Source of the DNA: Eledone cirrhosa
Taxonomy: Eukaryota
Assembly (NCBI GenBank): GCA_964016885.1
Contig: OZ024745.1
Location: 34,286,001-34,350,000, forward strand
Length of the DNA: 64,000 nucleotides
Direction of reading: 5' to 3'
In this document: positions 42,675 to 43,088 of the stretch, piece after piece
How the letters are laid out: every line of letters starts with the position of its first letter
How positions within the stretch are numbered: the stretch's first letter is position 1
The notes under the pieces: generated by a model
What the model was told of the DNA's origin: nothing
What the model saw: only the letters and a program-made list of their open reading frames with translations
Databases searched by the model: none
Made by a program: the position numbers and the translations under genes

Positions 42675-42982
42675 ACTTTCTTCTATGCTAAGCTATCTTT
42701 AGAATTTAAAAGATGCACTCTTATTCTAACTTCTAACTAACTAATTAACCGATGCTCTCTCTCTCTCTCTCTCTCTCTCTCTCTCTGTATATATATATAT
42801 ATATATATATATATATATATATATATATATATATATATATATATATATATATACAGAGAGAGAGAGAGAGAGAGAGAGAGAGAGAGAGAGAGAGAGAGAG
42901 AGCATCGGTTAATTAGTTAGTTAGAAGTTAGATTAAGAGTGCATCTTTTAAATTCTAAAGATAGCTTAACATAGAAGAAAGT
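42675..42982. repeat. inverted duplication centred on (TA)n
   Basis: ~80 bp of unique sequence plus (CT)n mirrored as (AG)n plus the reverse complement; two mismatches seen. Confidence 0.9.
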
Positions 42983-43088
42983 ATATAAGAATATATATAT
43001 AGGTAAGTTATTCCGGGTTGAATCGGAGGTAACCACAGTAAGTAAGGTACTCAATACATAGCAGAGTATAACAGTTTTAATATAGATT

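Follow-up and report, generated by a model that had tools for sequence, protein, structure and literature searches.

A TA-centered inverted duplication of host DNA beside a PLE-like repeat in Eledone cirrhosa belongs to a frequent, genome-wide class

The window analyzed here is a 64,000-nucleotide stretch of Eledone cirrhosa DNA (assembly GCA_964016885.1, contig OZ024745.1, positions 34,286,001 to 34,350,000, forward strand), located on a 135-Mb contig of a microsatellite-rich genome of 3.0 Gb. Between positions 42666 and 42990 of the window, an 89-nt unique flank and an adjoining (CT)16G tract are copied as their reverse complement across (TA)33. The left arm consists of single-copy host DNA (42666-42754, plus strand), which runs on unbroken from the upstream flank, and of a (CT)16 tract with a G interruption (42755-42787). 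The self-complementary (TA)33 (42788-42853) forms the center; it is followed on the minus strand by C(AG)24 (42854-42902), in which the (CT)16G of the left arm is mirrored, and by a right arm of 88 nt (42903-42990). A short (AT)5A tract (42991-43001) then leads into the tail of a repeat, P2, which begins at 43002, 11 nt past the right-arm end at 42990. A preliminary description of this DNA had noted about 110 bp of flank, including (CT)n, reverse-complemented across the TA tract, with the P2 tail about 20 bp beyond. Both observations are borne out; the tail starts 20 nt past the arm end given there and 11 nt past the full arm. The unique arms match at 77/79 positions in the core and at 95.5% over 89 columns. 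The two core differences are at 42933 and 42969, and the last 8 nt of the right arm are frayed, opposite a template that reads TATAT. The CT tracts of the two arms are unequal, at 16 versus 24 units.

A search of the 3.0-Gb genome with the arm sequence, of a kind that can miss very common words, returned two matches, which are the two arms themselves, and no further copy was found in the sampled DNA pool. With only two matches genome-wide, we rejected the arm as a MITE, another repeat, or a pair of head-to-head element copies. Folded as single-stranded DNA, the stretch reaches -143.9 kcal/mol, a value that none of 100 shuffled sequences attains. A comparison with Rfam for a hairpin RNA family gave 108 matches at E values up to 1, none of which reached the gathering score of its family. 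Because the left arm continues into ordinary flank, whereas the right arm stops before (AT)5A and P2, we infer that the right arm is the new copy and the left arm its template.

P2 occupies 43002-43600 on the minus strand, with its 3' end at 43002, a tail motif common to P1, and its own CA/TA tract at the 5' side. P1 is a PLE copy at 43855-45163, also on the minus strand, which carries the C-terminal end of a GIY-YIG-like endonuclease (44915-45094). P2 is abundant, with at least 41 matches among those listed, of 70 candidates; the copies listed end in TA tracts, often with an inverted 5' copy. A hammerhead-like motif lies at about 43088-43139 on the minus strand of P2; its core motifs and three stems were recognized by eye, by comparison with the hammerhead consensus. 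Free folding gives only the outer stem (z, -0.9), and the Rfam hammerhead gave no match at P2. No reading frame tied to P2 was found in the fetched loci, and Pfam returned no family for three peptides. Judged on its sequence features, namely, microsatellite targeting, the tail, and the inverted 5' copy, P2 behaves like a PLE and is a putative member of the group.

A second, tail-less P2 copy lies in the opposite orientation (46679-47146, plus strand); it has decayed further than the left copy, to which it is 92.5% identical. At its end, a (TC)20(TA)28 tract (47144-47240, plus strand) may be a direct echo of the (CT)n(TA)n target on the left, lacking the G, so that the two tracts could form a direct duplication closing one large P2 insertion. 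The opposite copy carries 36 derived changes and the left copy 8, with 3 in common, over 539 columns, and the two were not resolved as sisters in a tree. Given this uneven decay and a tree that does not resolve the copies as sisters, we give the echo little weight and consider the case for a target duplication weak; for the same reasons, the 7.5% divergence between the two copies was dropped as an insertion clock. Six changes in 549 columns (1.1%) are private to the left copy, and the difference between the arms of the mirror, from 2/79 to 4/89, is compatible with an age similar to that of the left copy. Private changes number 16 in the opposite copy, 10 being to G on the plus strand, and its branch is about four times as long as that of the left copy. 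At 45163-46730, we also observed a 298-nt unit in a 99% identical tandem (45442-45739 and 45904-46201) with a weak hammerhead match; on either side of the tandem lies one copy of a direct duplication of 98% identity (45278-45338 and 46668-46728). Elsewhere in the window, broken reverse transcriptase frames of a non-LTR retrotransposon lie at 8674-10510 on the minus strand, with others at 60872-63336.

Four further TA-centered mirrors in the window had been described, near 47427, 32450, 26525, and 16545-16657. The first two stand: one has 54-nt arms, identical at 53/54 positions, around (TA)15 (47424-47561), its left arm abutting a repeat, P5, directly; the other has 69-nt arms of about 91% identity (32450-32681) and an element at neither end. 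The third is marginal, since 26516-26712 is chiefly microsatellite with about 12 mirrored unique bases, and 16545-16657 is (CT)n(TA)n(AG)n alone, where no mirrored unique flank was found. Two P1 tails that face each other across a TA tract at 28028-28476 (177/187 identical) probably represent two separate insertions and not a mirror of host DNA.

The genome was then sampled beyond the window; loci with L numbers are stretches of DNA fetched from the same genome outside it. Two patterns, each with 5-nt mirrored flanks around 8 to 12 TA units, were found at 5 and 19 sites genome-wide, and their backward forms were found at 8 and 11. A cross-control pattern gave no site in any direction genome-wide, where about 19.5 were expected if flanks are independent (P = 3e-9). 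Of the 24 pattern sites, 20 were fetched; in 15 of these 20 the arms are 15 nt or longer, and many lie within compound microsatellite islands. A third pattern, (CT)4(AT)9(AG)4, occurred at 127 sites versus about 59 expected from flank frequencies; it was dropped as a poor sampler because only about 2 to 3 of 15 fetched sites reach DNA that is not microsatellite. In the window plus 1.0 Mb, an inverted flank match was present at 12/764 blocks of at least six TA units, several of which are two element copies facing each other, while a noncomplemented control on the same 764 blocks gave none. A further 380 kb gave no inverted match at 266 blocks. Altogether, six mirror events were found in 1.38 Mb sampled, 200 kb of which adjoins the window (L051, L052, L071, L084, L120, and L129, with L052 and L084 marginal). 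The resulting density of about 4 per Mb extrapolates from this sample to about 13,000 mirrors per genome, with a range of 5,000 to 28,000.

Most clear mirrors share the layout A-(TA)n-reverse A-(TA)m-B, with arms of 20 to 220 nt and identities, away from the focal locus, of about 90% to 100%. The entire layout is present at L238 with no element nearby, and L005 and the mirror at 32450 in the window likewise have no element at either end. Where the copy re-enters TA, the template offers about 1 to 5 nt of matching A/T, often just 1 to 2 nt; this is only marginally above chance in AT-rich DNA, and the junction at the focal locus is frayed. Nested double fold-backs occur at L071, L120, and L243. 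At L071 (8929-9560; about 100 kb downstream of the window), a second fold-back would have copied back through the first, and the arms are fully identical; the mirror ends in (AT)8 and a young, 5'-truncated P1. The nested mirrors at L071 (9156) and L120 (1363), which are on different contigs, have an identical inner spacer, (AT)9G(TA)19. Spacers of these lengths account for 3 of 847, with about 0.5 expected; the coincidence was spotted post hoc, is possibly due to chance, and is not used as evidence. Two other arrangements were seen: a unique-arm mirror at L217 (7651-7844; 43/46 identical) has (AC)46 rather than TA at its center, and L248 and L169 contain short palindromic element stubs in tandem with TA tracts between them. 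The focal mirror belongs to a frequent, genome-wide class, and that class is real.

The preliminary description suggested that such mirrors may arise during PLE integration, which would make them inverted instead of direct target duplications. If this were the rule, mirrors should recur at PLE tails, and they did not. A host mirror was present at none of 87 anchored P1/P2 3'-tail loci, three window duplicates having been left out (upper 95% bound, 3.4%). A search with a second P1 tail yielded no match, a blank that carries no information for so common a repeat. TA-block sides border a TA-bounded multicopy element at 579/2210 sides (26%) in a random sample and at 375/900 sides in anchored loci; the random figure replaces a background of 13.5% taken from a PLE library, which was abandoned because that library had been built partly from mirror-adjacent elements. 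In a two-by-two comparison, unique-arm mirrors were found at 4/1042 PLE-bordered TA sides versus 7/2000 others, an odds ratio of 1.1 with a confidence interval of 0.23 to 4.3, so that, with these small numbers, up to about fourfold enrichment lies within range. The 7/2000 was collapsed by hand from 17 rows; the 10 dropped rows are six inner rows that belong to two nested events, a duplicate, two rows in which element copies face each other (L100), and one uninspected row (L206). In these counts, the mirror rate beside PLE ends is not measurably different from that at other TA tracts.

A second comparison used 22 mirrors outside the window. Nine touch a TA-bounded element end, the simulated figure being 35% over 400 cases (P = 0.35); a repeat of any kind adjoins 16 of them, versus 63.5% simulated (P = 0.25). 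The automatic classifier missed PLE-like neighbors at L071, L020, and L023; adding these by hand gives 12/22 at PLE-like ends (P = 0.047), and with two rare direct joins added, 18/22 have a repeat neighbor (P = 0.054), both against a null that was not hand-corrected. Three mirrors join a truncated or 5'-truncated retroelement directly, with no TA: L023, L263, and the window mirror at 47424. At L023 (2207-2870), the partner of the TA-centered mirror is a 5'-truncated GIY-YIG-like PLE endonuclease frame, for which Atlas gave a GIY-YIG cluster at 0.94, with 33% of members; the partner at L263 is presumably a LINE fragment. The outer mirror at L129 is identical at 221/221 positions, while the P2 stub that it copies contains an inner fold-back mismatched at 5 of 60; from these values the mirror arose well after the PLE insertion, unless its arms were later homogenized. 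A link between mirrors and PLE integration as a general rule is therefore not supported, and neither is an inverted target duplication typical of PLEs, given the tails, the three element-free mirrors, and the late mirror at L129. A modest enrichment at PLE ends, or a coupled minority of mirrors, is possible.

Taking these observations together, we lean toward reading the focal mirror as a scar of DNA repair beside which the PLE is a bystander. The TA tract would have been broken; the top-strand TA end would have folded on itself and primed synthesis on its own flank for about 120 nt; and the newly made end would have rejoined TA on the other side, at what is now (AT)5A, through a TA match of 1 to 5 nt, with P2 lying beyond. 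Candidates for the cut are a TA-targeting PLE endonuclease or host cruciform nucleases. The anatomy fits a fold-back, as had been proposed from the focal sequence: the insert is an inverted copy of the DNA beside the junction, and self-complementary (TA)33, the putative primer, stands at the fold point. The same reading fits many other loci, where the layout recurs, with no measurable preference for a PLE as B. P2 would then stand beside the mirror because about a quarter of TA-tract sides border a TA-targeting element, and since mirrors are not measurably commoner beside such elements, the neighboring PLE is probably incidental.

The closest match by analogy appears to be the local fold-back inverted duplications of yeast, which measure 10 to over 150 bp and have 0 to 5 nt of junction microhomology (PMC11724301). 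There, as proposed here, an end folds back, copies its own flank, and joins the other end; in yeast, however, a single 10-bp inverted repeat served as primer at a cut induced in a laboratory strain, whereas here a TA tract would be the primer, and the mirrors are found at many natural loci of an animal genome and are sometimes nested. In snap-back SD-MMEJ, TA/AT is a frequent snap-back primer (PMC5728401), and two base pairs are enough for polymerase theta to extend a stem-loop (PMC11292364); in both, hairpin-primed synthesis yields an inverted repeat and new microhomology. In the SD-MMEJ study, repeat motifs were scored no farther than 30 bp from the junction (PMC5728401), unlike the arms of 20 to 220 nt in this genome. 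As a source of breaks free of PLEs, an (AT)34 tract at an AT/TA fragile site, about as long as the focal tract, forms hairpins or cruciforms that are cut by structure-selective nucleases; the abstract of that report describes deletions and recombination repair but no short inverted duplications (PMC12972899). Endonuclease-positive PLEs have inverted pLTR and tail structures (PMC8557442, PMC3846280, and PMC11167929), and their endonucleases cut AT-rich DNA on both strands (PMC11167929). P1 and P2 resemble them in sitting in TA tracts, in bearing a tail, and often in having an inverted 5' copy, but the inversions described there are of element sequence at the 5' end, whereas the focal mirror is host DNA at a 3' end, an arrangement seen at none of the 87 tails.

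A possible, though less probable, explanation is that the mirror and P2 arose in one event, in which a PLE endonuclease cut TA and the 3' end of the target folded back, copied the flank, and then reverse-transcribed P2 RNA. The polarity fits, as the plus strand reads from the new arm through (AT)5 into P2 cDNA at its normal 3' end, and the ages of the P2 copy and the mirror are compatible. The fully identical nested mirror of L071, ending at (AT)8 and a young truncated P1, and the direct join to a PLE endonuclease gene at L023 are also as such coupling would have it. Fold-backs of PLE cDNA on itself occur in this genome, in some cases centered on TA (L251). Self-priming has been proposed for PLEs (PMC3846280), and in vitro a PLE protein is able to cut AT-rich DNA and to extend both strands (PMC11167929). 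Against one coupled event stand the counts at PLE tails and TA sides, the element-free mirrors, and the L129 mirror that is younger than its PLE, together with the weak target duplication at 47144-47240 between P2 copies that are unevenly decayed. More doubtful still is a broader proposal that TA-targeting PLEs drive palindromes in general, their endonuclease breaking TA and their telomerase-related reverse transcriptase folding the target end and copying host flank. If so, the reverse transcriptase would add fresh (TA)n on 1 to 2 nt of pairing and only sometimes copy element RNA, and the roughly 13,000 mirrors would mostly be abortive PLE insertions, with the focal locus a completed one.

A nascent strand can also fold, copy backwards, and re-anneal during replication. 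Were such a strand to slip in TA, copy the flank backwards, and re-anneal in TA, the same product, A-TA-reverse A-TA-B, would form with no break and no nuclease, and re-entry would fall at TA, as observed. We regard this template switch as improbable: re-entry matches are often only 1 to 2 nt, and the nested double fold-backs (L071, L120, and L243) and direct joins to unrelated sequence (L023 and L257) look more like end joining, although sequence alone cannot separate the switch from the break repair that we prefer.

TA tracts are self-complementary and awkward for assemblers, which raises the question of an artifact, either a fold-back chimera in the library or two haplotypes assembled head to head across the tract. 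Three public runs, all of one sample, carry the flank. They contain both arm-specific bases at 42724/42933, the left type in X1 and the right type in X2 and X3, as expected of two real arms, although a heterozygous SNP could yield the same. No contig from the three runs spans the junction of arm and P2 or has the right-arm base at 42969; this shows little, because such contigs drop branches into high-copy repeats. Two of three RAD-seq runs, when aligned to the locus, barely cover the arm, and neither a long read across the locus nor an empty allele was seen in the public runs. At two sites in the flank, none of the three runs agrees with the assembly, and they may therefore represent another individual or haplotype. 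An artifact is very unlikely, because substitutions and a difference of 8 CT units separate the arms, which would not be expected of a fresh chimera, because the mirror ends after 88 nt in unrelated DNA, where a haplotype join would mirror for kilobases, and because mirrors elsewhere vary in identity from about 90% upward. The focal mirror is real in the assembly.

We conclude that the class is likely a known kind of fold-back repair acting at an under-described substrate. The literature searched, which covered few subscription papers and included the excerpted octopus repeat annotation (PMC13282606), yielded no report of TA-centered mirrors of host flank across a genome. If PLE enzymes were the cause, the inversion step of PLEs would be linked to a mutational process acting across the genome, which the counts given here do not demonstrate. 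In this genome, short inverted duplications appear to arise steadily at TA tracts, a process by which hairpins and compound microsatellite islands would be built up. Because the resulting mirrors can mimic inversions borne by elements, they matter for the annotation and dating of PLE ends.
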